Positions 2,944 to 61,267 of a stretch of 64,000 nucleotides of DNA are shown here, in pieces (the first letter of the stretch is position 1; every line of letters begins with the position of its first letter). The DNA comes from a candidate division WOR-3 bacterium. Its GTDB lineage: Bacteria > Hydrothermota > UBA3073 > JACQXS01 > JAGMCI01. The notes under the pieces were generated by a model. That model made no database searches. It had not been told where the DNA came from and was given only the letters and a program-made list of their open reading frames with translations. The position numbers and the translations under genes are program-made. The stretch covers positions 37,850 through 101,849 of the forward strand of contig JAGMCI010000012.1 of NCBI GenBank assembly GCA_023129325.1, in the 5' to 3' direction.

Positions 2944-5900
2944 ATATGAAACAGGGTTTACTTAAACATCAACCGCACCTGCCCGACATCCTGCAGGCGG
3001 GGATGAACGCAGACACTAATTTAGACTACAGACTGAAGACTATAGACCAAAGACTGATAAAGAGAGGTCTTTTGTCTTTGGTCTTATGTCTCTATCCGTG
3101 GTTTTTAATGGCTCAAAACTTGCAAGTAAATCTATATTCAGGAAATTACAAGATTCAAGAACTGAAAGATAGTGAGCACCAGATACTTATGGAAAACCTG
3201 CCCGACGGTAAGGCGAGTGGGTTTGTGAACTCTTTAATTCCTGGCAAACCGATACTTCCAGCCAAAACATATATGATTGTTATACCACCAGGAGTAGAAA
3301 TTCAAAGAGTAGATATTCAGGGCAGGAAGGTTGAGCTACCAGGGAAATATAATATTAAACTATCTCCACCTATTTTCCCAATAATAAGTGGTGATGCAAT
3401 AGCAAGCTATTGCACTCCGGGAGTGCGTTATTTATATCCAAAAGAAGCAGGCAAATACATTGGAAGAGGTGGTTTAAGAAAATATGAGTTCATAAAAGTA
3501 GTTTTCTTTCCTTTTACCTATTGCCCCGAGACACGGAAATTATTTTATACCTCCACCATAACAGTATCTATAGATTATACTCCAGGAAGTGGAAAGTGGG
3601 AAGTGGGAAGCCTGCCTGCCCCGCTCCGACAAGCGAAGCGGGACGGAGACGGCAAGGCAGGTGGGAAGTGGGAGGATATTGCAAGGGATTTGCTTATAAA
3701 TTATAATGAAGCTCAAAAATGGTATAAACCTTTTGTTGAAGCAGAGGCTTCAACCTACCCTAATTATGATTATGTAATTATTACCACTCCTTTTTGCACT
3801 ACTGCTATTGACACTCTTATAAAATGGAAAAAAAGAATGGGTTATAAGACAAAAGTTGTTACCAAAGACTGGATAGATATCAGTTATCTTGGTAACGACA
3901 TACAACAGAAAATAAGGAATTTTTTGCGAGATAAATATCTTGATTGGGGGATAGAATATGTGCTTATAGTTGGTGATACTATAATCCCAATGCGAACATG
4001 CGTAACATTTAATAATGCACACGGTCCAGGAGGCTGGCCGCCTGGATGGTATACTATACCGACAGACTTATACTATGCAGAACTTACTTATCCTGATAGC
4101 TTATCGTGGAATCTTGACGGAGATAATTATTATGGTGAGGTATGGGAATGGGCAGGGGATACAATCATTCCTGAGGGTGATGATGCTCCTGATTATGTCA
4201 CAGATGTCAGACTTGGCAGGATTCCCTGGAGTGACCCGGCGAAAATCCGTCACATATGTGAAAAAATAGTTTCCTTTGAGCAAAATACAGACCCTTCTTA
4301 TAAAAAAGCCTCACTCCTTGCTGGAGGTATGATATTTTACGAAAACGAGGATAATTACTATCATAAATATGATGGTGCAGATATTATGGAAGCATTGATA
4401 GACAGTGGTATTGTAGAGCCATCGCTTGCTGTTACTTTGTATGAGAAAGCAGGTCTTAGACCAAGTTTATACCCATGCACAGCTCCTATTACAATGGATA
4501 ATATAATAAATTACTGGAATAATCGTGCCATCTTTTATGAATTTAACCATGGAGGAGTAGACAAATTTTTTAGTAGAATCTGGGCATCGGACGATGGCGA
4601 CAGTATTCCAGAATCAAGTGAAATAACAAGAAACTATTTACTATACTCCAGCTCTGCGCCACAACTTGATGATACTCATCCAGCAGTTGGATTCTTGATG
4701 TCATGCGATTGCGGGAAACCTGAGGATGGTAATAACCTTGGAGCTGCACTTTTAGAGAATGGGAGTGTAAGCATAGGAGCAGCAACACGGGCAGCATGGA
4801 CTTCTGGAGAGTGGATGGTATATTATTTTTTTAAAAACCTTTTAAGAGACACAAGCTTAACAGGTAGTAAAGTGGGAGATGCGTTTGATATGGCAAGAAT
4901 TGAATATATGCAACTTAACCCCTGGTGGCTTAATACCTATACTATCAATCTTTATGGTGAACCATCATTGAACCATTTTGGTATTACACTGAAACCTAAA
5001 CTTACAGTATTTCCTGATACACTCAATTTTGAAATCACTATGACAGAGAACAGGAAACAGAGAGCTGATTCAATATACTACCACTCAATCTACCAAGATT
5101 TAGATTGTTACTCCTACCAGTATGATAAAGCTAAAATTGCTACTCGTTTTACCCCTCTTCAAAATCCATGCTGGGTAACTGGGTGCGAAATATTTGTTAT
5201 GCCAAAAGATACAATGCCATCGATTCCAGATACTGTCTTTTTGTATGGTGCGGATAATGATACTACGCCTGGAGAAATTCTCTCCACCAAAACATGGAGC
5301 GCCCCAATTTATGCTCCTGATTTCTGGACAATAACCGTTTCTTTTGATTCCTCTTCCCTGCCCGACGGACGGCAGGCGGGTATGATAAGAAGTGGCGATT
5401 TCTGGATTGGATACAACAGTATCACTGATGGGATTAATAATATCTGTGTATGCTCTGATATGACAATTGATAGTAGTGGACAAAATAGAAATAGGTATAC
5501 CTTTGACGAGACCTGGGCTGGTATTGACTATGACTGGGGCATCACAGCATTTGTTGATTACAGAATACCTGAAGATACCGCCATATTGTGGATTAAAAAT
5601 GATGGAAATGATATTTTAAATGTCTCAAGCATTAATCCCGCACCATATGGTGCGGGACAAGACTGGGTTGTATCTATAACACCAATTTCATTCCAAGTAT
5701 CTAAAAAAGATTCTGAGGCAGTTACTGTAATTGTCAGTTCTAAAGGACTCGGCAAGGGTATCTATCATGACTCACTTAAGATTATCTCCAATGATTCTGA
5801 TAAAAATCCATATTATGAGCCTGTAAAGTTTGTAATTACTGATAGTCAAATTACACCCCCGCAGGTGTCTCAATTGCTTGATTCAATAATCCCAAACCCT

Positions 5901-6155: not shown

Positions 6156-7412
6156 TTGATGAAAAGAAACATAGAAAGACACGCCTGCCTGACGGCAAGG
6201 CAGGGATATAGGCACGGAAAGATACACCCGCCTGCCCGCTTCGCCTGCCTCGCCCACGAGTCAAGGCGGGCCAAAGCTTCAGCGAGGCGAGCCATCTGTC
6301 GGGTAGGGAAATTTAATTCCTATCTTATTTTCTGGTCCATACGGATATTGGGAGTAATATTTTTAATCTTTCCTATCCGGATTTATGGAAATGAAAAACC
6401 CGATACTTCTTTATGGCACAAGTACGAAATTTTACCTAAAAAGGGATTGTTCAAAATAAAGAGAGAGTATTCATTTCCACTTCACGATATTCTTGGCAAG
6501 GAAAAAATTTATGCCCGATGCATTGCAGCTGCACCAATAGGAGGATTAAGAGAAGAAATTCAAATTTCACTTGTGAAAATCCCTTTAAAGAAAAAGATTA
6601 TCTTCCCTCTTGCTTTTGAAGAACTTCCTATTTCTGAATTGCAAAGAGAAAAGGAGCTTGAAATTTCAAAATCCGTAATTGAGGAGCAACAAGAACTCCC
6701 AAAACCAATAAAAATTGAAATTACACCGTTGGAAATAGAGAGACCTATAATTGCAGAAATCTCTCCACCAGCGAAAATAGAAACCAAGAAGATAAAAATA
6801 ACTGCTATTAAAGCCCTTGGAGTAATCAAAGAAGAAAGCTCAATTCCCCTTTTGAGAGAAGCTTTAAAAGAAAAAGAATGGAGTATAAAGCGTGAGGCTG
6901 CCGGGGCTTTAGCAGAACTTGGCGATACGATAGGACTTTCTTTTCTCAGGACAGCTCTTGAAGAGAAAGAAACAGCCAAGAAACTTGAAATCATAAGTAC
7001 TCTTGGAAGGATAGGAGATATTGCTTCAGTTCCGTTTTTAAGAAAATTGTTAGACCATAAGGAGTGGGCAGTAAGACGGGAAGCGGCTTTTGCCCTCTCG
7101 AAAATAGGAGACAAGACTGGTCTTTCATTCTTGCAAAGAGCAGTTGGTTCAGAAGACTCTAACAAAAAGATTGAGGCGGCGATGGCATTGGCAGAAATAG
7201 GAGATGACACTGGACTCCCGGAATTAATCTGTCAACTGACAGACAAGGATAGTCATACATCTGTGAGAATCGCGGCTCTTAAATCCATTGGAAAAGTAGG
7301 AAAAAAGAATATCATTCCTGTATTAAATGAGATAATGAAAAAAGACCCTGAACTCATAGTTAGAATTATAGCTTCAGAAAGTATATTAAAGATTAATAAA
7401 AGGAGGAAATAA
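6156..7412 (+). CDS. HEAT-repeat membrane protein, paralogue of the two flanking genes but without a zinc ribbon. The annotated 5' ~150 nt are a GC-rich repeat element, so the start is uncertain.
   Basis: TM-like ILGVIFLIFPI. C-terminal ~200 aa are tandem HEAT units (ALGVIKEESSIPLLREALKEKEWSIKREAAGALAELGD...). The first 50 codons translate the repeat element at 6183-6309. Confidence 0.55.
   Translation: MMKRNIERHACLTARQGYRHGKIHPPARFACLAHESRRAKASARRAICRVGKFNSYLIFWSIRILGVIFLIFPIRIYGNEKPDTSLWHKYEILPKKGLFKIKREYSFPLHDILGKEKIYARCIAAAPIGGLREEIQISLVKIPLKKKIIFPLAFEELPISELQREKELEISKSVIEEQQELPKPIKIEITPLEIERPIIAEISPPAKIETKKIKITAIKALGVIKEESSIPLLREALKEKEWSIKREAAGALAELGDTIGLSFLRTALEEKETAKKLEIISTLGRIGDIASVPFLRKLLDHKEWAVRREAAFALSKIGDKTGLSFLQRAVGSEDSNKKIEAAMALAEIGDDTGLPELICQLTDKDSHTSVRIAALKSIGKVGKKNIIPVLNEIMKKDPELIVRIIASESILKINKRRK
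6183..6309 (+). repeat. GC-rich element, family B, long form ~125 bp.
   Basis: The reverse complement of its 3' half matches 8214-8270 almost exactly (CCCTRCCCGACWGATGGCTCGCCTCGCTGAAGCTTTGGC…GGCGGG). A partial relative lies at 37544-37614. Confidence 0.8.
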
Positions 7413-8213: not shown

Positions 8214-8270
8214 CCCTGCCCGACTGATGGCTCGCCTCGCTGAAGCTTTGGCGAAGCGGGCAGGCGGGCG
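8214..8270 (-). repeat. Family B element, short form, inverted relative to 6183-6309.
   Basis: Direct sequence comparison. Lies immediately after the stop of gene 7412-8212. Confidence 0.8.
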
Positions 8271-8685: not shown

Positions 8686-8843
8686 ATATTAAATTCAAAA
8701 TCCCAATGCTCCAAATAGGAGTAATAACAGTTTGAAATTTGGAGAATTGGGATTTGTTTAGTCCTGAATTTAATTCAGGATCGGATTTAGGAATTAGGAT
8801 TTTAATTTTTAATTTGTCATTTTGCATTTTAATTTTTGAATTT

Positions 8844-9356
8844 TTATTTCTTGTATATCACTCTTCCTTCCTTAGTTTCTACCTCTATTTTTTCAGGGAC
8901 CACACCGTCAAAATCCATAACAAGTCGCATCACATCTTCTGATGATTTAGCTTTAAGTAATGCCTCCTTTAATACCTTTGATTTTAAGAACCTTGCGACT
9001 TTTGCTACAGCTTGTAAATACTCTTTGCGTGCCTCAATTGGGGCAGCAATCATAAAAATTAAGTGAACTGACTTCTTATCAAGAGCCTTAAAATCAACAC
9101 CTTCCTCTGACTTTCCGAAAGCTACTTTAAGCTCCTTTGCCGTATCAGACCTCCCGTGAGGAATGGCAATACCACTCCCAATAGCCGTTGACTCTATTTC
9201 TTCCCTTTTCTTAATGACCTGAAGGAATTTATCTTTATCAGTCACAATCCCCTTGTTCACAAATAATTCTACAAGCCCCTCAATAACTGCAAACTTATCT
9301 TTAGAGACAAGATTGCAATTTATGAGCTTCTCATCTATTAGTTCTTGTAATAACAT
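8844..9356 (-). CDS. ptsN: PTS EIIA type-2 (PtsN / nitrogen-regulatory IIA-like) domain protein.
   Basis: Active-site histidine motif GIAIPHGR and the overall EIIA(Fru/Ntr) layout. RBS aaggagg precedes the start. Confidence 0.7.
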   Translation of the reverse strand: MLLQELIDEKLINCNLVSKDKFAVIEGLVELFVNKGIVTDKDKFLQVIKKREEIESTAIGSGIAIPHGRSDTAKELKVAFGKSEEGVDFKALDKKSVHLIFMIAAPIEARKEYLQAVAKVARFLKSKVLKEALLKAKSSEDVMRLVMDFDGVVPEKIEVETKEGRVIYKK

Positions 9357-10606: not shown

Positions 10607-12135
10607 CTCAGTCGTATCCTTTCCTTCTCAATTCTCTTTATTTCTTTAACTGGGATTTGGGTTGGATAATTACCCGTGAAACAGGCAGTGCAATAAGAAT
10701 TTTTTGCACTTCTGACTTCTGTATCACCAACAGCCCTTAACATACCTTCAAGAGATTGATAAATGAGTTCATCAACCCCAATTTGTGCCTTTATTTCAGA
10801 AATGCTCTTTTCTCGGGCTATAAAGTCTTGCTTCGTTTGCATATCAATCCCATAGAAACAAGGATATTTAAGGGGTGGACAGGATGAAATAAAATATATC
10901 TTCTTGGCACCCGCCTTCCTCACTAAAGATGTGATGGCTTTGGATGTGGTGCCACGAACAATAGAATCGTCTACTAATAATACCTTCTTTCCCTGTATTT
11001 CTTGTTTTACAGGATTAAGTTTGTACCTTACATATTCTAATCTCCTTTCGTCCCTTGGCATTATAAAAGTCCTGGCTACATACCTATTTTTTATAAGGCC
11101 CTCCCTGTAAGGAACACCAAGAGTATTGGCTAAAGATAAAGCAGTTGCCCTGGCTGTATCTGGCACAGGAATTACAACATCCGGTTTAAGACCAGACTTT
11201 TTTATCTTCTTAGCAAGCTCTTCGCCAAGTCTTAATCTGGTCTCATATACAGATACATTGTCAAGAACAGAATCAGGCCTTGCAAAATAAATATATTCAA
11301 AAATGCAATGCCTTGGACTCGGTGGCTTAATAACTTTTGAAATGACTTTCCCTTTAAGGTCTATAAGTATTGCCTCACCTGGATTTACATCCCTGATTTC
11401 ATCATAGCCAAGAGTGTCAAGAGCAACTGATTCAGATGCAAAACAAAAATTATTAAATTTGGACCCCTCAGCTGGGTAGGTTGAAAGGGACCCCCCAGTT
11501 GGGTAGGTTGAAGCCTCTGCTTCAACCTTGCATCCAAATTTTAAAGGCTTTATACCATGAGGGTCTCTAAAAGCAAGAAGTCCAATATTGGCAATGAAAG
11601 AGATGCAGGAATAACTTCCAGTTACTCTTTCCATCACTCTTTTAACAGCTTCAAAAACAGGTTTTTCCCCACCTATGGATGGAGCCCACATATTGGTCTC
11701 AAGTTCAGAAGCGAGAACATTTAAGATAATCTCAACATCACTTTTCGTATTTATGTGGCGATGTCGCTTATTCACAAGCCATTTCCTTAAACTCTCATAA
11801 TTTATGACATTCCCATTATGAGCTATGGCTATGCCAAAAGGAGTATTTGTATAAAAAGGTTGCGCATCCTCAGGGTCCCCAGCTCCAATTGTCGGATACC
11901 GAACATGACCAATCCCGATTGAACCCTTAAGTCGAGTCAGGTCTTGCGGATTAAAAAGGCTCTGGACAGTCCCTTTGCCTTTTTTTAAATAAAATCTACC
12001 ATCCTTATTCGCAGAATGCTGTGCATAAGTTATAATTCCAGCCGCATCCTGCCCCCTATGCTGTATAGCAATCAGCCCAAGCCAGAGCTTGGAAGCTACA
12101 TCACGCTCGCCAAATATCCCAATAACACCACACAT
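10603..12135 (-). CDS. purF: Amidophosphoribosyltransferase (glutamine PRPP amidotransferase). It contains an in-frame repeat insertion at 11470-11527.
   Basis: N-terminal MCGVIGIFG (Ntn cysteine). PRTase motif VLLVDDSIVRGTT. A C-terminal CxxC cluster is present. The inserted segment KVEAEASTYPTGGSLSTYPAEGS is encoded by a duplicated repeat element. Confidence 0.9.
   Translation of the reverse strand: MCGVIGIFGERDVASKLWLGLIAIQHRGQDAAGIITYAQHSANKDGRFYLKKGKGTVQSLFNPQDLTRLKGSIGIGHVRYPTIGAGDPEDAQPFYTNTPFGIAIAHNGNVINYESLRKWLVNKRHRHINTKSDVEIILNVLASELETNMWAPSIGGEKPVFEAVKRVMERVTGSYSCISFIANIGLLAFRDPHGIKPLKFGCKVEAEASTYPTGGSLSTYPAEGSKFNNFCFASESVALDTLGYDEIRDVNPGEAILIDLKGKVISKVIKPPSPRHCIFEYIYFARPDSVLDNVSVYETRLRLGEELAKKIKKSGLKPDVVIPVPDTARATALSLANTLGVPYREGLIKNRYVARTFIMPRDERRLEYVRYKLNPVKQEIQGKKVLLVDDSIVRGTTSKAITSLVRKAGAKKIYFISSCPPLKYPCFYGIDMQTKQDFIAREKSISEIKAQIGVDELIYQSLEGMLRAVGDTEVRSAKNSYCTACFTGNYPTQIPVKEIKRIEKERIRLS
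11470..11527 (-). repeat. Family G hairpin element (GGGTAGGTTGAAGCCTCTGCTTCAAC), duplicated and in-frame in purF.
   Basis: Perfect 8-bp stem GTTGAAGC/GCTTCAAC. Other copies at 3735-3760 (in C25, encodes EAEASTYP) and 37713-37738 (intergenic). Confidence 0.8.
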
Positions 12136-12360: not shown

Positions 12361-12411
12361 CCCTGCCTGCCCCGCTCCGATAAGCGAAGCGGGACGGAGA
12401 CGGCAAGGCAG
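12361..12411 (+). repeat. Family A element, intergenic, in the divergent purF / DUF218 promoter region.
   Basis: Same 51-bp consensus. Confidence 0.85.
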
Positions 12412-12464
12412 GTGTGGTTGTTTTTCTTGACTTTTAGGAGTTGATGATGTAAATTACTAAAATA

Positions 12465-13112: not shown

Positions 13113-13223
13113 AGAGACCGCACTCTTTTTAATTTAAAGTATCTCACACGAGTCCGTGACTTTAAGGCTTTGGAATGGAGTTAAGAAGGTTTTTAAATTT
13201 TTTTTAAAAATTGCGAAAAAAAC

Positions 13224-13251
13224 TTGACATTAATAAAACTGATGATAAAGT
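13224..13251 (+). promoter_or_regulatory. Sigma70-type promoter (TTGACA-16-TAAAGT) with an A-rich upstream element, serving the three-gene cassette.
   Basis: aaaaaaacTTGACAttaataaaactgatgaTAAAGT. The same aaaaaacTTGACA architecture recurs at 15278, 52266, 57716, 61117, 38728 and 12427. Confidence 0.45.
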
Positions 13252-15190: not shown

Positions 15191-15419
15191 ACAAAAGTTA
15201 TCCTGAAACATTTTAACTTTTCTTTATTCTCACACAATCCAAAATTCAGCAGTTTTTATTAAATGTTGAAAAAAAACTTGACAAATAAAAAATTTGTGTT
15301 AAAATTACAAAAGGAGGTAATATAAGAGTCTTTTAAGGTATGTGAGTTTATGGAGTGCATTACCTTGGTAATGCAACTAAATTGACTTATATGCCTTATA
15401 AAGACTCTATTTTTATATT

Positions 15420-19436: not shown

Positions 19437-20822
19437 ATGCTTGAAGAAAAGATAAAGACAAAGCAAGCCAAAGTTTGCATAATTGGACTTGGTTATGTGG
19501 GGCTTCCACTGGCAATCCATTTTGCCAAAAATGGATTTAAAGTTTTGGGACTTGATATTAAAAAAGAACGAGTAAATCTTGTGAATCAGGGTAAAAGTTA
19601 TATTGAAGATGCATCAGAATTAGAGCTCAAAAAACTTGTAACCTCAAAGAGACTGAGTGCTACCTGGGACTATGCTAAAATCCCTGAATACGATGTAATC
19701 CAGATATGCGTTCCAACACCTGTAGATATTAATAAAGAACCCAATATTTCTTATTTAGTTGCTACTGCTGATGAAATTCAAAAAAGACTTCGTAAAGAAC
19801 AACTTATTATATTAAAAAGCACCAGTTTTCCAGAAACTACAGAAAATGTTCTCCTCCCAATACTTGAAAAATCAAGACTTTGTGCCAGAGGCACATCCCG
19901 ATTTGCATCGGGAAAAGTTGGTAAAGACTTTTATCTTGCTTTTTCACCTGAGAGAATAGACCCCGGGAACAAAAGGTTTACTACAGAAAATACTCCAACA
20001 GTTGTGGGAGGCATAACTCCGAAATGCACTAAACTTGCTACTCTTCTTTACAAGAGTGTTATAGATAAAGTGATTTCCGTTTCTTCCGCACGGGTGGCTG
20101 AAATGACAAAACTTCTTGAAAATACTTTTAGAAATGTAAACATAGCACTTGTAAATGAATTAGCTCAGTTATGTGAACGTATGAATATAAATATTTGGGA
20201 AGTAATAGATGCGGCGAAAACAAAACCATTTGGATTTATGCCATTTTATCCAGGACCAGGAGTTGGAGGACATTGTATTCCTATAGACCCTTATTATCTC
20301 TCCTGGAAAGCGCGTGAATATGATTTCCATACTTCATTTATAGAGCTATCTGCAAAAGTAAACGAATCAATGCCTTACTATGTGGCAAATAAAGTAATTG
20401 AAGCATTAAGCACGCAAGGGGTATGTCCATCAGCAGGAAAGATACTTATTTTAGGTGTCACATTTAAGCCTGATGTCAGAGACATTCGGGATTCACCTAT
20501 ATTAAAACTAATAAAAATTCTTGAACCACGCGTAAAAGAAATAATATATAATGACCCTTATATAAAAGAAATAGAAGTCCCTACAGGGACTGTCCCTCTG
20601 ACTTTAAAGGGACTGTCCCTATATAAGTCTAAGACATTAACTCAAAAACTATTAAAAAGCGTAGATTGCGTTATCATAGCCACCAACCACAAAGCCTATG
20701 ATTATCCCTGGCTTGTCCAGAACGCAAGTCTTATAGTAGACACCCGTAATGGCACAAAAGGCATTCCTGCCCGACGCCTCACGGGCGGGAAAGGAGGTAA
20801 TATAATAAGGCTTGGCTGTTAG
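19437..20822 (+). CDS. Nucleotide-sugar dehydrogenase (UDP-N-acetyl-D-mannosamine / UDP-glucose 6-dehydrogenase family). It has in-frame palindromic insertions at 20576-20620 and a GC-rich element at 20766-20789 in the C-terminus.
   Basis: IGLGYVGLP Rossmann motif. Catalytic region GFMPFYPGPGVGGHCIPID. C-terminal IPARRLTGGKGG is encoded by the GC-rich element. Confidence 0.8.
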   Translation: MLEEKIKTKQAKVCIIGLGYVGLPLAIHFAKNGFKVLGLDIKKERVNLVNQGKSYIEDASELELKKLVTSKRLSATWDYAKIPEYDVIQICVPTPVDINKEPNISYLVATADEIQKRLRKEQLIILKSTSFPETTENVLLPILEKSRLCARGTSRFASGKVGKDFYLAFSPERIDPGNKRFTTENTPTVVGGITPKCTKLATLLYKSVIDKVISVSSARVAEMTKLLENTFRNVNIALVNELAQLCERMNINIWEVIDAAKTKPFGFMPFYPGPGVGGHCIPIDPYYLSWKAREYDFHTSFIELSAKVNESMPYYVANKVIEALSTQGVCPSAGKILILGVTFKPDVRDIRDSPILKLIKILEPRVKEIIYNDPYIKEIEVPTGTVPLTLKGLSLYKSKTLTQKLLKSVDCVIIATNHKAYDYPWLVQNASLIVDTRNGTKGIPARRLTGGKGGNIIRLGC

Positions 20823-27992: not shown

Positions 27993-29497
27993 ATATCTTA
28001 ATGCTTAATCCACCGTTTTCTGGGATGAAGGGAAGGTTTTCAAGGGAACAGAGAAGTCCGGCAATTACTAAGAGTGGAACTTTATATTATCCTATGTGGT
28101 TAGCTTACGCTACAGGAGTATTAGAAAAAGAAGGATTCTCTGTTAAACTTGTTGATGCTCCCGCAAATGGACTTGAAATAAATGATGTAATTGAAATTGT
28201 TAAAGATTTTAAACCCTCGCTTATTGTGATTGATACCTCAACTCCAAGTATATATAATGATATTAAAATAGCAGAAAAACTGAAAGATATTCAACTCACA
28301 ACTCACAACTCACAACTCACAACTGTCCTTGTGGGTCCACATGTTTCTGCTACTGCCGATGAGACTTTAAAATTAAGTTCTCAAATTGATATTGTATGTA
28401 AAGGAGAATACGATTATACAATTAGAGAAATAGCAAGGAAAATTAAAAATCATCCCGCACTTATGCATAAGTGCGGGGTTGATAATATTAAAGGAATAAG
28501 CTGGCAAAAAGATGGTAAAATTATACATAACCCAGATAGGCCATTTATTGAGAACTTGGATGAAATACCATTTGTCTCCAAAGTATATAAAAAACATCTT
28601 GATTACACAAAATACTTTTATGCTCACTCCCAATATCCAATTGTAACAGTAGTTGGTGGGCGTGGCTGTCCACATAAATGTGTTTATTGTGTTTACCCTC
28701 AGACTTTTAGTGGTAGAAAATTGAGATACAGAAGTATTAAAAATGTAGTAGATGAAATGGAATATATTACTAAAGAATTTAAGGGAGTAAGAGAAATTAT
28801 GTTTGAAGACGATACTTTGACTGTAAATCGTGCAAGGTGTAAAGAATTTTGCAAAGAACTCCTTTCAAAGAATCTAAAGATAAGATGGTCCTGTAATTCA
28901 AGAGCAGATGTAGATTTTGAAACCCTTAAACTGATGAACCTTGCTGGTTGCAGGTTATTTTGTGTTGGCTTTGAGTCAGGTAATCAGCAAATTCTTGATA
29001 ATATGAAAAAGGGCATAAAACTTGAAACAATGAGACAATTTGTAAAAGACACAAAAAAAGTTGGAATACTTATTCATGGTTGTTTTTTAGTTGGAAATCC
29101 AGGTGAAACTAAAGAGACTATGGCACAAACTTTGAAATTTGCTAAAGAATTAAATCCTGATACTGCTCAATTTTTCCCTATAATGGTATACCCTGGAACA
29201 GAATTATATAAATGGACAAAGGAAAAAAACTATCTTGCAACTGAAGATTATTCTAAATGGCTTACCCCAGAGGGACTTCATAATTGTGTAGTTAATTTAC
29301 CAAACTTAAGTAGTAAAGAAATGGTAGAATTTTGCGCCCGAGCAAGAAAAGAATTTTATATGAGACCCTCTTATATCACAAAAAAGCTATCTCAAGCTCT
29401 AAAAAATCCAATGGAGGGTAAGAGAATTTCCAAATCATTTATAGTATTTGCAAAACATCTCATTCAAGGAAGTAAAAAAAGGAAAACAAAAAGATGA
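27989..29497 (+). CDS. B12-binding-domain radical SAM protein. It contains an in-frame 9-bp microsatellite at 28292-28325.
   Basis: N-terminal cobalamin-binding-like domain. CPHKCVYC (CxxxCxxC) radical-SAM cluster motif. The microsatellite encodes IQLTTHNSQLTTV. Confidence 0.75.
   Translation: MNILMLNPPFSGMKGRFSREQRSPAITKSGTLYYPMWLAYATGVLEKEGFSVKLVDAPANGLEINDVIEIVKDFKPSLIVIDTSTPSIYNDIKIAEKLKDIQLTTHNSQLTTVLVGPHVSATADETLKLSSQIDIVCKGEYDYTIREIARKIKNHPALMHKCGVDNIKGISWQKDGKIIHNPDRPFIENLDEIPFVSKVYKKHLDYTKYFYAHSQYPIVTVVGGRGCPHKCVYCVYPQTFSGRKLRYRSIKNVVDEMEYITKEFKGVREIMFEDDTLTVNRARCKEFCKELLSKNLKIRWSCNSRADVDFETLKLMNLAGCRLFCVGFESGNQQILDNMKKGIKLETMRQFVKDTKKVGILIHGCFLVGNPGETKETMAQTLKFAKELNPDTAQFFPIMVYPGTELYKWTKEKNYLATEDYSKWLTPEGLHNCVVNLPNLSSKEMVEFCARARKEFYMRPSYITKKLSQALKNPMEGKRISKSFIVFAKHLIQGSKKRKTKR
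28292..28325 (+). repeat. Tandem 9-bp microsatellite (CAACTCACA)x3.7 inside the radical-SAM CDS.
   Basis: Read directly: caactcacaactcacaactcacaactcacaactg. It is in-frame because the unit is 9 bp. Confidence 0.9.
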
Positions 29498-29645: not shown

Positions 29646-30881
29646 ATGAAGATACTCTTCTTTTTATCTCTTGGAATTTTGTTATATGTATATTTTGGTT
29701 ATCCCTTACTTCTGCTTATTCTTTCTAAAATAAAGAAACCGCACAACCGCAGCACTGCACAACTGCAATCTTTCCCTTCAGTTTCCCTTATCATACCTGC
29801 TTACAACGAGGAAGAAATAATAGAGGAAAAAATTAAAAATAGTTTCTCACTTGACTACCCCGGAAAAGTTGAGATAATCCTTTCTTCTGATGGTTCAACA
29901 GACAAAACAGTAGAGATTACTTCAAAATTCAAGAAAGTAAAAATAAACGATTTTAAAGAAAGAAAAGGGAAAATGGCAACATTAAATAGGACGCTTCGTG
30001 GCAGCTATGAAGGAACGAAAGCACCAACAGGTGAAATTATTATTTTCACTGATGCAAATGCTATGTTTGAAAAAGATGCTTTAAAAAACCTCATCCGTAA
30101 TTTTGCCGATAAAAGCATTGGCTGTGTGTGCGGGGCAAAACGAATAAAGAAAGAGAACCTCCCTGCCCGCCGCTCCGCTTTGGCAGGCGGGTGCTCTCAT
30201 TTGGTAGGCGGGTGTGAAAAAACTTACTGGAAAATGGAGAACTTCTTAAAAGAAAAGGAAAGTGAAATTGGTTCCTGCATTGCAGATGGCTCAATATATG
30301 CTTTGAGGAAAGAACTTTACCCTTTTCCAAGAGAGGATAAAATTATTATGGATGATTTTGCTATCTCTCTGGGAATAATAAATAAAAATTACAGAGTTGT
30401 TTTTGAGCCTAAGGCAGTGGCATATGAGAGTGCATCTTTAAACACTTTTGCTGAATTTAAAAGAAAGGTGCGAATCCTGGAGGGAGCACTTGCGACAATA
30501 CTTTCTTGTCCAATAAAGCGAGTTGGTTTCCAAATTGTATCCCACAAAATATTACGCTGGCTTGGAGGTATATTTATGATTACCCTGTTAATTTCAAACC
30601 TGTTTATTGCCTGCCCGACATCTGGTAGGCGGGAAAGTATCTCCTATCAAGTATTTTTGATGGTGCAAATGTGTTTTTATTTATTCGCATTAGTTGGTTT
30701 TGGAGCAACTGCTATAACTGTAGCCATCCCGATTTCATCGGGACGGAAACACAAAATATTCTCTCTGTTTTATTCGCCATTTTATTTTTGCTTGACAAAT
30801 TTAGCTCAAGTGATAGGATTTCTTAAATATATAGTAGGAAGTAAACAACCATTTTGGGAAAGAGCAGAAAGAATCCGTTAG
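29646..30881 (+). CDS. Membrane glycosyltransferase family 2. It carries two in-frame GC-rich element insertions.
   Basis: SLIIPAYNEEEII...SSDGSTD GT2 motifs and C-terminal TM helices. Inserts at 30160-30213 (PARRSALAGGCSHLVGGC) and 30610-30633 (ACPTSGRRES). Confidence 0.65.
   Translation: MKILFFLSLGILLYVYFGYPLLLLILSKIKKPHNRSTAQLQSFPSVSLIIPAYNEEEIIEEKIKNSFSLDYPGKVEIILSSDGSTDKTVEITSKFKKVKINDFKERKGKMATLNRTLRGSYEGTKAPTGEIIIFTDANAMFEKDALKNLIRNFADKSIGCVCGAKRIKKENLPARRSALAGGCSHLVGGCEKTYWKMENFLKEKESEIGSCIADGSIYALRKELYPFPREDKIIMDDFAISLGIINKNYRVVFEPKAVAYESASLNTFAEFKRKVRILEGALATILSCPIKRVGFQIVSHKILRWLGGIFMITLLISNLFIACPTSGRRESISYQVFLMVQMCFYLFALVGFGATAITVAIPISSGRKHKIFSLFYSPFYFCLTNLAQVIGFLKYIVGSKQPFWERAERIR
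30160..30213 (+). repeat. GC-rich short element, family E (CCTGCCCG…GGCAGGCGGG / TTGGTAGGCGGG), in-frame in the GT2 gene.
   Basis: Related short copies at 2976-3003, 5356-5380, 20766-20789 and 30610-30633. All share CCTGCCCGAC-N(8-10)-AGGCGGG. Confidence 0.75.
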
Positions 30882-33821: not shown

Positions 33822-33965
33822 TGATGGTGATTCGTATAAATTCATGGTTTGATTTAACCACAGATGAACGCAGATAGACACAGATATTTTTGTTTTAATT
33901 CGTGGTTATAATTTTTGCATTTTAATATGTATTTTTAATTTTTGATATTTGATTTTTAATTTGAT

Positions 33966-34910
33966 ATGAAGTTCTTAGTTACCGGGGGGGCTGGATTTAT
34001 TGGCTCTCATTTGGTAGATAGACTTATTAGAAATGGCAATCAAGTCTCAATAATTGATAACTTATCAACTGGAAAGGAAACAAATATAAATAAAAACGCT
34101 AAATTTTATAAATTAGGAATAGAAGAAACACAAGTTGAAGAAGTATTTAAAAAAGAAAACCCAGATTGCATTTTCCATCTCGCCGCTCAATCTCAAGTTA
34201 AAAAATCTATTGATGAACCAATTTTAGACGCCACAACTAATATACTTGGAACACTAAATTTACTTGCCCTCTCCTTAAAATATTCCGCCATAGGCGGAAA
34301 GATAAAAAAATTTGTCTTCGCATCCTCTGGAGGAGTGATGTACGGAAATACTCTTAAGCCAGCTGTTGAAGAAAAAACCCCAAATCCTATCTCCCCTTAT
34401 GGAATATCAAAGCTCACAGGAGAACAATATATCAAATTTTATGGTACCCAATATGGACTATCTTACTCAATCCTGAGATACTCAAATGTCTATGGGCCAC
34501 GCCAGGACCCATATGGAGAAGCTGGTGTGGTTTCCATATTCACCAATCATATGCTTAAAAATGAAGAGTGTATACTTTATGGATTTGGAGAGCCCATTAG
34601 AGATTATATAAATGTAGTTGATGTAGTGCAAGCAAATATCCTTGCTATCTCAAGCTCAAATAATCAGATTTTAAATATTGGAACAGGAATTCCAGCTTCT
34701 GTAAATCAGCTCTTTGAATTAATGAAAATAATTACTGGTTACTCACTTAAACCTATATATCAGCCACTAAGAAAAGGAGAACTAAATAAGAATTTCCTTA
34801 ACTCAAATAAGGCTCAAAAATTGCTTGACTGGAAGCCCAAGGTAAGCTTAAAAGACGGAATTGAACAAACCATAAATTGGTTTAAAAAGAATATTGGTAG
34901 TGTAAAATAG
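33966..34910 (+). CDS. NAD-dependent epimerase/dehydratase (UDP-sugar 4-epimerase-like SDR).
   Basis: VTGGAGFIGSHLV Rossmann motif. YGISKLTGEQY (YxxxK). Confidence 0.8.
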   Translation: MKFLVTGGAGFIGSHLVDRLIRNGNQVSIIDNLSTGKETNINKNAKFYKLGIEETQVEEVFKKENPDCIFHLAAQSQVKKSIDEPILDATTNILGTLNLLALSLKYSAIGGKIKKFVFASSGGVMYGNTLKPAVEEKTPNPISPYGISKLTGEQYIKFYGTQYGLSYSILRYSNVYGPRQDPYGEAGVVSIFTNHMLKNEECILYGFGEPIRDYINVVDVVQANILAISSSNNQILNIGTGIPASVNQLFELMKIITGYSLKPIYQPLRKGELNKNFLNSNKAQKLLDWKPKVSLKDGIEQTINWFKKNIGSVK

Positions 34911-37035: not shown

Positions 37036-37683
37036 ATGAAAAACTATTTTGTTCATCCAACTGCTGTTGTTGAAAAAGGAGCTAAAATAGGTAAAGAAAC
37101 AAAAATTTGGCACTTCTCACACATAATGAAAGGAGCAAAAATTGGTAAAAATTGTTTGCTTGGTCAAAATTGCTTCGTTGCTAAAGATGCAATTCTTGGA
37201 AATGGGGTAAAGCTTGAAAACAATGTCTCTGTCTATACATTTGTGACCCTCGAAGATGATGTATTTGTTGGACCTTCAGCTGTATTTACAAATGATTTAA
37301 ACCCAAGAGCCCCTTATCCAAAAGGAGGAAAATGGATTGCTACTTATGTGCAAAAAGGAGTATCAATTGGAGCAAATGCGACCATTGTTTGTGGTATCAA
37401 TATAGGTAAATGGGCTTTCATAGGTGCTGGAGCAGTCGTGACAAAAAATATTCCTGATTATGCTATAGTTGCTGGTGTTCCCGCAAGAGTCATAGGCTGG
37501 ATGTGCGAATGTGGACAAAAACTTAAATTTAAGCCCTCCCGCCAGATGGCCCGCTTCGCCCTGTCTCGCCGAGCCAAGGCGGGCGGAGCTTCAGCAAAGC
37601 GAACAGGCGGGGAGGAAAAGGCAACTTGTCAAAAGTGCGGCAGAAAATACCATAAAGAAGGTCTTAAATGTAGTCTTATTTAA
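37036..37683 (+). CDS. Hexapeptide-repeat N-acetyltransferase (WbpD/PglD-like). Its C-terminal zinc ribbon is interrupted by a GC-rich element.
   Basis: Left-handed beta-helix hexapeptide repeats ([13 protein letters not shown]...). C-terminus reads CECG…[27 aa encoded by element 37544-37614]…CQKCG. Confidence 0.75.
37544..37614 (+). repeat. GC-rich element related to families B and C, inside the C-terminus of the acetyltransferase.
   Basis: CCCGCTTCGCC…CTGTCTCGCCGAGCCAAGGCGGGCGG…GCTTCAGC. Shares blocks with 6183-6309 and 40644-40674. Confidence 0.7.
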
Positions 37684-37995
37684 GCTATTTTTTATATATA
37701 GCTTTAATCATAGGGTAGGTTGAAACCTCTGCTTCAACTCTCATAATTTGTAATCTGTAATTCAGAATTTATAATTTTTAACTTCCTGCTTTCTACCTTC
37801 TGTGTTCTCCGCAAACTCTGCGGTTCAGGTCATCTTTGGAGTGCAAAAACGGTGCTCTTGTAAAAAGATTGTGGGCACGCCTGTCGTCAACAACGGGGAT
37901 TTCAAATCGTGCAAATGTAACAATGCTACAACCACAGACCTTGCCTTGCTAAAAATCAATGTAGGGCAAACCTTTAGGTTTGCGGAATGCAGACT

Positions 37996-38427
37996 TTAGT
38001 CTGCCTTAGGAGAAATTTTATCTGAGAACTTTTGCTCTGCAATTAAGAATGCCTCTTTAACATTCTTCCAGCGAGCACAGTAAGGGGATGAACTATACTT
38101 TCCTTTGGAATTAATTAATGCGTGGGTGGGTTCCTTTCCATACTCGTTATAAAGACGAATTAAGTCTAATAATAATTCATCATCCTTTATCAATTCTTTC
38201 TCACGAATCATATCTGCAGGGTTGATAGGTATCAAACCAGCTTCTTTGACTGCATTATTCCATAAGCCAAAATGATACCTCGCTGTACCTAAAGAAATCT
38301 TTGAATGCTTATTAAAATCTTTACTCTTTAGTGATTTTACACCCAGAGCGGATGCAATTCTTCTGATTTCTTCAATTATTTGCTGTTTTGTAACTCCGTA
38401 TATGCGAACTTGAGTTTGACTACGCAT
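37996..38427 (-). CDS. Hypothetical protein with two homing-endonuclease-associated-like repeats (…YHFGLWNNAVKEAGL / …YCARWKNVKEAF).
   Basis: 143-aa ORF on the opposite strand to its neighbours, bracketed by ~30-bp direct repeats at 37799-37829 and 38641-38690. A terminator-like hairpin (GGGCAAACCTTTAGGTTTGC) lies at 37962-37984, downstream of its stop. Confidence 0.4.
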   Translation of the reverse strand: MRSQTQVRIYGVTKQQIIEEIRRIASALGVKSLKSKDFNKHSKISLGTARYHFGLWNNAVKEAGLIPINPADMIREKELIKDDELLLDLIRLYNEYGKEPTHALINSKGKYSSSPYCARWKNVKEAFLIAEQKFSDKISPKAD

Positions 38428-38727
38428 CCCTGTGTCTGAAAAAATTCCTATTATACTTCTTATTTTACCATATCCTTTACATTTGTCAAGTATTTTTAGT
38501 CTAATTTATTATACTAATATAAACCGCAGATACATCACAGAATATCAAAATGCAAAATAGTCGGATAGATTATTGGTTTAATCTAATAAACTAACAAACC
38601 AGCAAACTGAACATCTTTTTGCATTAGCATTCTGTGTATCTGTGTTCCCCGTTTGCCAAAGCCTTGTGCGGCGGGCAGGTCTGCGGTTCTTATTCGTGTA
38701 ATTTGTGTAATTCGTGGTTGATTTTTC

Positions 38728-49939: not shown

Positions 49940-51642
49940 ATCAAGATAAGATTTAATAATCCTCCAACTACAAGGGCTGATGCAATCATAATTAAAGCAG
50001 ATTTTAACATATCTATAAATCCTAATTCCCTTGCCATCATAGTAAATGTAGCTACACAGGGAAAATACATTGCCAATACAACCGAAGCTATTATGAGTTG
50101 CTTTAAAGTTAATCCCAATGGAACCAGCATCCCAATTGCCACATCTTTACGCAAAAAGCCAACTATAAGTGCTCCTACAGCTGGTCTTGGCAAGCCAAGA
50201 ACTCCTGTAATTACCGGAGCTGTAAATCTTCCAATAAAATCAATTATTCTTAAGGTATATAAAATATTTACAATAAAAACTCCTACAAGCACCCAGGGAA
50301 CAGCTTCTTTAATGAACCATTTTACTCTCATCCAGACCTTTTTAAAAAGACCCTTAAAATAAGGAATCCTATAAGGTGGTATCTCAGTGAATATTTCTGG
50401 ACTCTCTCCTCTGACAGTCTTATTGAGTATAAATCCTAATACTATCCATACTAAAAACAAAGTGCCAAAAATTGTCCCCAGTCCCTTTGCACCATATTTT
50501 CCAGCAAGTCCAACAATCATTGCAATTTGAGCCATACAGGGAACTGCAATTGCCATTAAAGTAGCCGCAATAAATCTTTCGCGCCTTGTTTCCATAATCC
50601 TTGTAGATAAAGCTCCTGGAACATTGCACCCAAGACCAAGCATCATTGGAACTATCGCTAATCCGTGTAAACCCAATTTGTGCATCAAAGCATCTACTAA
50701 GATAGCTAATCTTGGAAGATAACCTGAATCTTCTAAAAACGATAAAACTAAATAAAATGCAAATATATAAGGTAAAACCATAGCAAGTGGGACGAATAAT
50801 CCAGTAGTCAGAAGTCCAAGAGATTCAACAAAATCTATTTCACCTCCTATTAGTTTGCCAATTAATATATTATGAATGAATCCTTGAGACCCCAGGAGCC
50901 CAGAAAGTTTAAGCATCAAAGGAGCCCACAATCTTTCAAAAATGGGTTCAAATAAATAACCTATGAGTCCTTCACCAATAAATCTTATAATCTTAAAAGT
51001 AGCAAAAAGTATAATGAGAGCTATTGGGATTCCAGTAAATGGTGTTACAGATGCATCCGCAAGCCTTTCTAAAAAAGTATGATGCCGATGAGTTATGAGT
51101 TGAACTTTCTCTGTAATCCTGCCAACATCATGCCATTGCTCACCAGGTTCAGATTTGTATGTCCCAGGCACGGCTTCAAGTAACTCATTTACAAGTTCCT
51201 TAATTCCTTCACCAGTAAGTGCAACTGTTGGAATGACTGGAACCTGCAGTAATTTTTTTAATTTTTTATAATCAATCTTTATGCCCTTATGATGCGCCTC
51301 ATCCCATAGATTAAGGGCTACTATCATTGGTTTTTTAGTTCCAAGAAGCTGTAAAGTTAAGTATAAATTGCGTTCAAGATTGGTAGCATCCACTACATTA
51401 ATAATGATGTCCCCCTCTTCAATCATTTCACAAGCTACCTCTTCTGCTTTATTTGTTGGCTTTAAGGTATAAGCACCGGGGACATCAATAACTTCTACGC
51501 TTTCACCTTTAAGTCTCATCTTCCCTTTTTTATACTCAACTGTTGTCCCGGGATAATTTGAAACAATCACAGCAACACCAGTAAGCCTTGAAAAGATAAC
51601 TGACTTCCCAACATTCGGATTCCCCATCAATAAAATCTTCAT
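49936..51642 (-). CDS. feoB: Ferrous iron transport protein B.
   Basis: G-domain MKILLMGNPNVGKS, followed by the gate and TM regions typical of FeoB. Confidence 0.9.
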   Translation of the reverse strand: MKILLMGNPNVGKSVIFSRLTGVAVIVSNYPGTTVEYKKGKMRLKGESVEVIDVPGAYTLKPTNKAEEVACEMIEEGDIIINVVDATNLERNLYLTLQLLGTKKPMIVALNLWDEAHHKGIKIDYKKLKKLLQVPVIPTVALTGEGIKELVNELLEAVPGTYKSEPGEQWHDVGRITEKVQLITHRHHTFLERLADASVTPFTGIPIALIILFATFKIIRFIGEGLIGYLFEPIFERLWAPLMLKLSGLLGSQGFIHNILIGKLIGGEIDFVESLGLLTTGLFVPLAMVLPYIFAFYLVLSFLEDSGYLPRLAILVDALMHKLGLHGLAIVPMMLGLGCNVPGALSTRIMETRRERFIAATLMAIAVPCMAQIAMIVGLAGKYGAKGLGTIFGTLFLVWIVLGFILNKTVRGESPEIFTEIPPYRIPYFKGLFKKVWMRVKWFIKEAVPWVLVGVFIVNILYTLRIIDFIGRFTAPVITGVLGLPRPAVGALIVGFLRKDVAIGMLVPLGLTLKQLIIASVVLAMYFPCVATFTMMARELGFIDMLKSALIMIASALVVGGLLNLILI

Positions 51643-51734
51643 TGCAAAATATAAAATTAGCAATGCAAAATTAACAATTCTTTGTTTAAGCCAACAAGTT
51701 TATACTTCATTTTGAATTGCTAATTGCTAATTTT

Positions 51735-51974
51735 TCAATTTTCATTTATTTTTACTATTATTCTTCGAGCCATGCCACGCCCAAGAGCTACTTGAGTTCT
51801 GCCGACCTGAATCACTACAGGGCCACCCATAAGCTGTGAACTCATCTTCTTTATAATCACGCCTTCCCTTACCCCAAGAGCCTCGAGTTTCCTCCTTAAA
51901 CCAAACCCACCGCCAATTTCCACAACCCTGCCGCTCTCTCCAACCTTTAATTCCATTAAAGATAAATTCTTCAT
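51735..51974 (-). CDS. feoA: Ferrous iron transport protein A.
   Basis: 79-aa SH3-like FeoA (…LKVGESGRVVEI…LGVREGVIIKK…). Confidence 0.8.
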   Translation of the reverse strand: MKNLSLMELKVGESGRVVEIGGGFGLRRKLEALGVREGVIIKKMSSQLMGGPVVIQVGRTQVALGRGMARRIIVKINEN

Positions 51975-52015: not shown

Positions 52016-52265
52016 ATACTATTTAATTTATAAATGTCAAGAAAAAACGCTTTTGGGTGCAAGATTTTGTTTATTTTAAGAAATGTTATATCCTATAAGT
52101 ATAGATATATCAATATCTTGTATCTCAAAGGAGGGTATTATAAATTTTGTTTTATGTGCTATGAAAGTATAAACTCTCCAGACTTGACCCCATTCATGGA
52201 ACCTGCTCTGGTTGATACTCTGTTGTTGTTTTTGTAGAAAACTTTTTAAAAAAACTTGACAAACT

Positions 52266-53860: not shown

Positions 53861-53953
53861 TTTAAACAACTAAACTTAAGTGTAAAATACTTATTGCCAA
53901 GCACTGTGGAAATCCAGAGTTGACAGTGTTTGGGGATAAGAAAGGAGGTTGAG

Positions 53954-61215: not shown

Positions 61216-61267
61216 TCCCGCCTGTCCGTCTCCGTCCCACTTCGCTTGTCGGAGCGGGGCGGGCAGG
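61216..61267 (-). repeat. Family A element, reverse orientation.
   Basis: The reverse complement matches the 51-bp consensus with 3-4 mismatches. Confidence 0.8.

Follow-up and report, generated by a model that had tools for sequence, protein, structure and literature searches.

Family E: miniature GC-rich hairpin elements inserted in frame into genes of a candidate division WOR-3 bacterium

A family of miniature GC-rich hairpin elements, referred to here as family E, was analysed in a 64,000-nt stretch of DNA (36% G+C; hereafter the window) from a candidate division WOR-3 bacterium. The copies are 21-30 nt long, most of the simple copies in the window are intragenic, and alignments with homologous proteins place them as in-frame insertions. 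Family E probably consists of non-autonomous mobile hairpin elements that resemble repetitive extragenic palindromes (REPs) and are tolerated in genes if their length is divisible by three. The main hosts are a GT2 glycosyltransferase gene, which carries two E copies and one other hairpin insertion, a C25-family peptidase gene with three E copies, one 51-nt composite element and other hairpins, and a nucleotide-sugar dehydrogenase gene (Table 1). The original prediction, made from the letters of the window, that short GC-rich mini-elements had been inserted in frame into genes is supported by gaps in homologues and by further copies on the scaffold. The genome sequence that was read amounted to 82 kb (the window and 18 kb of flanks on the same scaffold) and was metagenome-assembled. 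Its assignment to WOR-3 agrees with an NCBI entry from this candidate division, on a 374,764-bp scaffold, to which the GT2 protein is 100% identical.

Sequence and abundance of family E

Each E unit is composed of the 5' arm CCTGCCCGAC, a loop of 4-12 nt and the 3' arm (C/T)AGGCGGG. In the window, five copies measure 24 nt, one 30 nt and one variant 21 nt. In every copy the whole unit folds end-to-end into a hairpin, in whose stem CCTGCC pairs with GGCGGG (including one T-G or U-G pair) or with GGCAGG. The region 30160-30213 consists of one 30-nt copy followed by a 3' half-copy.

Enrichment was assessed against expectation and shuffled sequences. In the window, CCTGCCCGAC with at most one mismatch was matched 13 times (0.90 expected; none of 100 shuffles reached 13), the full two-arm pattern four times (0.00 expected) and AGGCGGG 17 times (1.7 expected). 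A relaxed two-arm scan gave 18 matches versus 0.07 in shuffles. Over the 82 kb, 12 simple E copies plus composites were found where approximately none was expected. The five motif sites listed by the original prediction were all recovered at their positions; the list was incomplete, as a degenerate copy (3197-3220) and the 21-nt variant at 6184 had been overlooked. The in-frame peptides that it quoted are correct and the GT2 gene does carry two copies, while the other hosts number two and not three, because the copies at 2978 and 5357 share one open reading frame (ORF; C25 peptidase, 2940-6143). The E stretches are also the strong local GC outliers that had been described (24-nt windows with at least 17 G+C, within a window of 36% G+C).

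The motif is not confined to the window: more copies, some of them identical, lie on the flanking 18 kb. The 24-mer at 5357 recurs 7.5 kb upstream on the scaffold, and the 21-mer at 6184 recurs in the left flank, upstream of the window. Simple copies favour the plus strand 11:1 over the 82 kb (14:2 when composites are counted). The plus strand is the strand with positive cumulative GC skew, and plus-strand copies are also found inside minus-strand ORFs.

Every intragenic copy in the window keeps the frame and contains no stop codon, and the copies of the original list all lie in long ORFs that were also called by an independent gene caller. All three codon phases are used, giving peptides of the types PARR..., CPTS... 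and LPD...; therefore no peptide is under selection, and the copies are repeats of DNA and not of peptide. Peptide-level selection on E was ruled out on these grounds. Together, all GC-rich and hairpin elements were estimated to occupy roughly 1 kb of the window, where more than 1 kb had been proposed previously; as to the placement of most copies in frame inside genes, about one third of the in-ORF copies of these families sit at extreme ORF ends, where extension of the ORF may be an annotation effect.

That the pattern is an artefact of assembly or binning, caused for example by chimeric reads or contaminating sequence, has a practically negligible probability. The genome is indeed a metagenome-assembled scaffold. 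The Logan assembly of SRR13892596 and the scaffold from the ENA are identical in DNA over 5.6 kb, including both GT2 copies; because that assembly is independent, the E elements are not an assembly artefact. The copies are moreover in frame, and the same element is present in cultured Terrimonas pollutisoli and Pinibacter aurantiacus.

Alignment with homologues

Host proteins were aligned with 105 GT2 homologues, 93 dehydrogenase homologues, nine C25 homologues and one C25 paralogue from the same genome. The E residues are not conserved: gaps stand opposite them in nearly all other sequences, in GT2, dehydrogenase and C25 proteins and in the paralogue.

For the dehydrogenase, a syntenic contig of a related organism (L232) encodes a protein that is 75% identical and lacks exactly the eight residues PARRLTGG. 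In the DNA alignment exactly the 24 nt CCTGCCCGACGCCTCACGGGCGGG are missing, and the junctions show no target-site duplication. This segment (8 aa, placed by the aligner at residues 447-454) has 6% occupancy among the 93 homologues, and the extra residues of the dehydrogenase overall have 0-6%. In the GT2 protein, residues 172-183 (30162 copy) and 323-329 (30610 copy) are occupied in 2% and 4% of the homologues, respectively, and the half-copy that trails the first of these lies within a 14-17-aa gap of the homologues.

In the C25 peptidase, eight of the nine homologues have a gap of 8 aa opposite NLPDGKASG (3197 copy), where P0260, the remaining one, aligns poorly, and the in-genome paralogue has a smaller gap. 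SLPDGRQAG (5357 copy) faces a 6-7-aa gap in two of the three full-length homologues that cover the domain (P0126 and P0260); the third, P0158, has residues across the site. At the site of the 2978 copy (codon 13), the C25 homologues have the start codon and then directly the signal peptide. Should translation in fact begin at the ATG with which the element ends, this copy, located ahead of the signal peptide, may belong to the 5' leader. The two C25 paralogues (2940-6143 and 53930-57532), both with a type IX secretion system (T9SS) sorting domain, share 48% identity, and parts of their nucleotide sequences are 73-88% identical; one is greatly extended at the N terminus, and the other has an extra domain of about 200 aa, which hosts the 5357 element.

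At the level of sequence comparison, these alignments show each aligned E copy to be a lineage-specific insertion. Neither GGCGGG nor CCCGCC was found in the related WOR-3-like contigs L231 and L232 (33 kb, 33-35% GC); the E expansion is therefore lineage-specific.

Structural placement

A check of whether the insertions fall in surface loops of the host proteins had been suggested by the original prediction, and its outcome was positive. In AlphaFold models of the GT2 protein and the dehydrogenase (mean predicted local distance difference test score, pLDDT, 92 and 85, respectively), all six hairpin insertions tested lie in loops between secondary-structure elements, mostly in the segments of lowest confidence. 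In the GT2 model, the 30162 insertion forms the lowest-confidence block (residues 171-180, pLDDT 59), the 30610 insertion occupies loop 323-331 between helices 307-322 and 332-360, and the hairpin insertion at 30727 lies in loop 361-372 (pLDDT 70). In the dehydrogenase model, the insertion at 19881 falls in a disordered loop (residues 149-159; pLDDT <50 at residues 153-158), that at 20592 in loop 386-395 (pLDDT about 63) between strands 378-382 and 393-397, and the E insertion (20766) in loop 444-451 between strands 433-435 and 456-458. An example of sequence spanning an insertion is NLPARRSALAGGCSH.

GC-rich hairpins that are bypassed are known in some yeast mitochondria, and E elements could likewise be kept out of the protein by RNA-level excision, translational bypassing or protein splicing. 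This is very improbable here: the kept frame, the absence of stops and the enrichment of lengths that are multiples of three (25 of 28 genic copies versus 43 of 65 non-genic copies in the other genomes described below) would be needless if the elements were removed, and the insertions occupy structurally tolerant loops.

Distribution in other phyla and phages

A cross-genome scan was performed with one genome per GTDB species and yielded at least 120 loci, of which low-GC loci were analysed. Since G or C makes up 14 of the motif's 17 fixed bases, matches in high-GC genomes (Streptomyces, Nocardia and others) are expected from composition and were set aside as chance or coding matches.

In low-GC loci, 39 of the 71 matches listed are a 27-mer, CCTGCCCGAC-T-R-Y-GTCATTC-AGGCGGG, whose conserved loop was absent from the query. 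Its sources are Bacteroidota, Scalindua, Marinimicrobia, Patescibacteria, Omnitrophota and an archaeal metagenome-assembled genome (MAG); among the Bacteroidota are cultured Terrimonas, Pinibacter and a Chitinophagaceae isolate. Viral contigs carry mostly the 21-mer CCTGCCCGAC-NGGC-AGGCGGG, in some cases within phage genomes that have portal genes. Another MAG (L069) has a 24-mer that exactly matches one of the copies on the scaffold studied here.

The flanks of 92 non-redundant copies from low-GC loci are essentially random (strongest signal: T at position -2, 42 of 92); the element therefore consists of the motif alone, with no consensus at the target. A Rikenellaceae contig (L004) has tandem 112-nt units, some containing the 27-mer and others not, which provide a clean presence/absence comparison with no duplication. 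In the other low-GC genomes, ORFs of at least 600 nt contain 30% of copies, versus 67% of random positions, and the genic copies are divided between sense (15) and antisense (13). Some copies there are likewise in frame in real genes; hosts include a GH2 glycosidase, an alpha-L-fucosidase, a hybrid histidine kinase and an FG-GAP protein. When the genes of 93 E-bearing low-GC loci were clustered for a gene common to them, only generic families and related phage regions (such as portal protein genes) were found.

In a Marinimicrobia MAG (L048, 4396-5732), three 27-mers lie within about 750 nt of an IS110-family transposase gene. The gene is split into two overlapping ORFs, with one 27-mer at the junction (read as LPDFFIQAG) and the other two just upstream of the gene.

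The hairpins might instead be selected functional modules, acting in mRNA pausing, stability or processing, as a DNA site for a host factor or through a useful peptide. Strong conservation of the arms extends across phyla, and the loop of the 27-mer has the consensus T-R-Y-GTCATTC; two Chitinophagaceae genera (L002 and L013) have a copy at apparently the same locus; in several copies the U-G pair adds slightly to the stability of the hairpin in the sense RNA; and terminator-like T-runs follow some copies elsewhere (L113). Such a role is nevertheless improbable as the explanation of the family, since positions are not conserved (orthologues and about 200 homologues are without the element), the hosts are unrelated, the three phases give different peptides and genes elsewhere carry the copies in both orientations. 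Rfam gave no match, and related contigs are entirely without the element.

Composites and other mini-hairpins

The longer GC-rich "families" of the window are E arms with other hairpins nested in the loop. One composite has 36 nt of another GC-rich hairpin between CCTGCCCGAC and CAGGCGGG, and a second type, of 51 nt, has a 30-nt hairpin nested within the 21-mer CCTGCCTG|ACGGCAAGGCAGG; conversely, at L003 E is itself nested in another hairpin. The in-frame 51-nt copy at 3611 in the C25 gene faces gaps over much of the segment in C25 homologues, the region being variable and poorly aligned. Tandem heptamers (GGGAAGT/GAAGTGG) occur inside genes at 3584-3610, 3660-3675, 538-578 and 60577-60617, and the 3611 composite sits in the middle of such an array, which mimics a direct-repeat flank.

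Other small hairpins are also inserted in the host genes. The 19881-19913 segment is an exact 33-nt insertion with 0% occupancy in the 93 dehydrogenase homologues, and residues 361-370 of the GT2 protein (30727 hairpin) have 5% occupancy among the 105 GT2 homologues. Hairpins of the form TCCCGA...TCGGGA occur at 19896, 30727 and 49267. The unrelated in-frame mini-hairpins (15-33 nt; for example TGTGCCagaGGCACA, TCCCGA..TCGGGA and TCCGCCataGGCGGA) are located at 19881-19913, 20592-20621, 34284-34298, 30727-30743, 28454-28477 and 5636-5657. Four of them are insertions by orthologue alignment, that at 28454-28477 against L231 only; the evidence at 5636-5657 is the hairpin itself, within the C25 ORF. 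L232 carries hairpin insertions of its own, which are different. Two dehydrogenase homologues (P0274 and P0275) have unrelated insertions of 19-26 aa (for example VDESPRSHQ, twice) at a shared alignment column, about 427; this column may coincide with the loop of the 30-nt insertion in the window, so that a shared insertion hot spot is a mere possibility.

These observations bear on the idea that every site generated its own palindrome de novo through replication or repair errors (template switching, snap-back synthesis or hairpin-end processing, for example), with no copying. Many different small perfect hairpins are present (20 perfect GC-rich hairpins in the window versus 4.6 in shuffles), several look unique, such as TGTGCCagaGGCACA, and the related contig L232 has its own. 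As an account of family E, de novo origin is hardly likely: it cannot account for the repeated appearance of 17 identical arm bases, for 24-mers and 21-mers that recur unchanged at several loci, or for arms and a loop consensus shared with other phyla, and at the two sites with a known empty orthologous site neither arm is derived from the flanks.

The GGGTAGGTTGAAGCCTCTGCTTCAAC hairpin family, also named by the original prediction, is real: three copies, 96-100% alike, lie at 3735-3760 (minus strand), 11501-11526 and 37711-37738, and the copy in the C25 gene coincides with about four extra residues relative to the paralogue. AT-rich intergenic repeats were found at 8773-8850, 33893-33962 and 51641-51760 and at 13199-13231, 15253-15285 and 52231-52263; they include a conserved AAAAAAACTTGACA block, which looks like an upstream element with a -35 box. 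A minus-strand gene (37996-38427) encodes a 143-aa protein with two "homing endonuclease associated repeat" domains (PF18780) and no nuclease domain, and is flanked by GC-rich elements, of which those at 37530-37611 and 37711-37738 lie to one side and that at 38655-38691 to the other. On the same scaffold, 7-9 kb past the right end of the window (L236, 18431-20301), an N6/N4 methyltransferase and a MjaI-type restriction endonuclease are encoded, and a PDDEXK_3 gene is inserted between ruvC and ruvA.

Table 1. Host genes, family E copies, composites and other mini-hairpins in the window
Feature	Position	Strand	Context	Details
C25-family peptidase, T9SS sorting domain, 1067 aa	2940..6143	+		Pfam PF01364, PF18962
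E copy, 24 nt	2978..3001	+	C25 gene	phase 3, (H)LPDILQAG
Degenerate E copy CCTGCCCGACGGTAAGGCGAGTGG	3197..3220	+	C25 gene	phase 3, (N)LPDGKASG
51-nt composite	3611..3661	+	C25 gene, in frame	21-mer CCTGCCTG|ACGGCAAGGCAGG, 30-nt hairpin in loop
E copy, 24 nt, CCTGCCCGACGGACGGCAGGCGGG	5357..5380	+	C25 gene	phase 3, (S)LPDGRQAG
E variant, 21 nt, CCTGCCTGACGGCAAGGCAGG	6184..6204	+		perfect 7-bp stem; identical copy in left scaffold flank
Inverted counterpart of 8215 composite	6270-6309	-
Composite, E arms CCTGCCCGAC...CAGGCGGG	8215..8268	+	intergenic	36 nt of other GC-rich hairpin in loop
Further 51-nt composite	1199-1249
Further 51-nt composite	12362-12412
Further 51-nt composite	61217-61267	-
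Nucleotide-sugar (UDP-N-acetyl-D-glucosamine/mannosaminuronate-type) dehydrogenase, 461 aa	19437..20822	+		homologues about 433 aa
Two adjacent hairpins	19881..19913	+	dehydrogenase gene	TGTGCC-aga-GGCACA + TCCCGA-tttgca-TCGGGA, CARGTSRFASG
Hairpin-forming insertion, 30 nt	20592..20621	+	dehydrogenase gene	GTCCCT...AGGGAC, VPLTLKGLSL, 0% occupancy
E copy, 24 nt, CCTGCCCGACGCCTCACGGGCGGG	20766..20789	+	dehydrogenase gene	phase 1, PARRLTGG
GT2 glycosyltransferase, 411 aa	29646..30881	+		Pfam PF00535/PF13641
E copy, 30 nt, CCTGCCCGCC-GCTCCGCTTTGG-CAGGCGGG	30162..30191	+	GT2 gene	phase 1, PARRSALAGG
Trailing 3' half-copy TGCTCTCATTTGGTAGGCGGG	30192..30212	+	GT2 gene	second AGGCGGG at 30206; resembles 3' part of 30610 copy
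E copy, 24 nt	30610..30633	+	GT2 gene	phase 2, (A)CPTSGRR(E)
Mini-hairpin	30727..30743	+	GT2 gene	TCCCGA-tttca-TCGGGA in 10-aa insertion IPISSGRKHK
Perfect hairpin, 15 nt	34284..34298	+	epimerase gene	TCCGCC-ata-GGCGGA, 5-aa insertion SAIGG

Proposed mobilisation

Under the mobile-element explanation, an E copy would be pasted as a unit into a new site, with no target-site duplication and no recognisable target sequence, and other hairpins could later insert into its loop to give the longer composites. Within genes, a copy would survive where its length is a multiple of three (24 nt being eight codons), it holds no stop and it falls in a tolerant loop or terminus; purifying selection would leave such inserts, which are then predicted to be translated as an extra 7-10 residues.

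Mobilisation may occur in trans, by an HUH/Y1-type transposase (a REP-associated tyrosine transposase, RAYT, or an IS200-like enzyme) that is encoded elsewhere, recognises hairpins in single-stranded DNA and would act on one strand at the replication fork. Hairpin transposition of this kind through single-stranded DNA operates in IS200/IS605 and has been proposed for REPs (PMC6006769). From the exact ends, the absence of duplication, the nesting and the strand bias, we infer an HUH/Y1-like rather than a DDE mode of transposition; this single step is put forward as a possibility, with more doubt than confidence. Since the plus-strand bias here includes copies inside minus-strand ORFs, and genes elsewhere show a 15:13 ratio, the bias appears to follow the chromosome strand and not transcription.

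Several observations weigh against the mobile-element explanation or its enzymatic part. Within-species polymorphism between empty and filled sites was not found, the other contigs with these proteins being identical and the nearest GT2 relative 57% identical. Window genes are mostly on the plus strand, so that replication and transcription bias are weakly separated there. No transposase, and in particular no Y1 enzyme, was found in the 82 kb read. The GTAG and CGTC tags of catalogued REPs are absent from E, and no conserved target tetranucleotide of the IS200/IS605 type was seen in the flanks of the 92 copies. Finally, RAYT as the specific driver of E was ruled out, because RAYT homologues are accompanied by different hairpins and a close relative (L239) has no E.

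The RAYT candidate had come from the Rikenellaceae contig L004, where a RAYT-like gene lies among E copies. Its protein matches NCBIfam NF047646 (REP_Tyr_transpos) with E = 1.3e-12, below the curated cut-off, and has the motifs NHFH (HUH) and YIHQNP (Y). E flanks a RAYT-like gene in one Rikenellaceae lineage only (L004, L238 and L240), and different hairpins surround the RAYT homologues of Dyadobacter (L241) and L243; E at L004 is therefore a passenger and not the cognate repeat. In the window, no RAYT was detected by tblastn.

Comparison with known repeats

No match was obtained when the window and seven E-bearing loci were scanned with Rfam at gathering scores. Literature searches with the E sequence returned unrelated primers only, those on WOR-3 repeats and on GC-rich in-frame hairpins returned nothing specific, and the E motif is not among the entries of published REP tables.

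REPs are short palindromes without target duplication that occasionally lie in frame in genes (PMC3733652, PMC6006769). Like REPs and REPINs, E is short (20-40 nt), imperfectly palindromic, high-copy and GC-rich, clusters and nests, and occurs in repeat arrays flanking one RAYT-like gene. GTAG REPs are defined by a conserved 5' GT[AG]G at the hairpin foot (PMC3733652, PMC6006769), whereas E starts with CCTGCC and has no GTAG at positions -10 to -1. E insertions are exact singlets of 24 or 27 nt and not the inverted doublets of REPINs. REPs are predominantly extragenic; simple E copies are mostly intragenic in the window, and in other low-GC genomes they fall in ORFs of at least 600 nt less often (30%) than random positions (67%). 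The E arms are common to several phyla, whereas a REP is usually confined to one lineage and co-evolves with its own RAYT. RPE-4 and RPE-6 are CGTC-tagged REPs (PMC3733652). CGTC REPs have the CGTC tag, an 8-9-bp stem starting with A-T pairs, a 4-5-nt loop and a CCA tail, whereas E has GC-only arms, loops of 4-12 nt and ends without CGTC or CCA. Membership of E in the GTAG and CGTC REPs was ruled out on these defining features.

Rickettsia palindromic elements (RPE) were reportedly described by Ogata et al. in 2000. E shares with them selfish, in-frame palindromic repeats in intact genes of an AT-rich genome, which add peptide segments where these are tolerated, in several unrelated hosts and sometimes twice per gene. 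Classic RPE-1 elements are about 100-150 bp long; E (21-30 nt, in many phyla) is set apart from them by size. The MJRE, palindromic repeats with coding potential in Methanocaldococcus jannaschii, are said to have been described by Suyama, Lathe and Bork in 2005. They too are GC-rich palindromes in an AT-rich genome, mostly extragenic, with a few in ORFs without a frame break. Compared by description only, the MJRE differ from E in being archaeal, longer and species-specific (reviewed in PMC2229807).

With the palindrome-associated transposable elements (PATEs) of the IS200/IS605 group, E shares a hairpin basis, the lack of target duplication and a strand-biased orientation (11:1 plus for E); the ends of IS200/IS605 require a pair of subterminal hairpins as well as a conserved 4-5-nt target next to the left end, whereas E is a single hairpin with near-random flanks. 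Like MITEs (miniature transposable elements with inverted repeats), E is non-autonomous with short imperfect terminal inverted repeats (CCYGCCYG at both ends). DDE-type MITEs are 50-500 bp long with target-site duplication, whereas E measures 21-30 nt, its terminal repeat is an imperfect 8 bp and no duplication is present at two exactly defined sites.

E thus works like intragenic REPs, the Rickettsia RPEs and the MJRE. It is unusual in its tiny size, its exact boundaries and its high intragenic fraction in this genome, and above all in the presence of the same arms across phyla and phages.

Biological significance

Most known cases of palindromic repeats inside genes come from Rickettsia, a few REP families and one archaeon; the present case adds an uncultured phylum and an unusually small unit whose boundaries are exact. 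That distant phyla and phages share E is at odds with the common view of REPs and RAYTs as lineage-bound pairs. A wider proposal, speculative and on balance rather unlikely, is that the CCTGCCCGAC...AGGCGGG hairpin represents a hitherto uncatalogued superfamily that spreads horizontally and comprises the smallest mobile DNA known (21-27 nt) in WOR-3, Bacteroidota, Planctomycetota (Scalindua), Marinimicrobia, Patescibacteria, Omnitrophota and phages, which would be moved by a strand-specific enzyme, would need neither target nor duplication and would routinely remodel protein loops by 7-9 residues.

In practical terms, the elements inflate protein lengths, may break assemblies (the Logan contigs are fragmented in this region) and create spurious "LPDxxQAG"-type peptides in databases. 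If the mobilising enzyme is found, E would offer a minimal substrate for studies of hairpin transposition and, if the mobile-element explanation is true, family E would be a natural source of short protein loop insertions.

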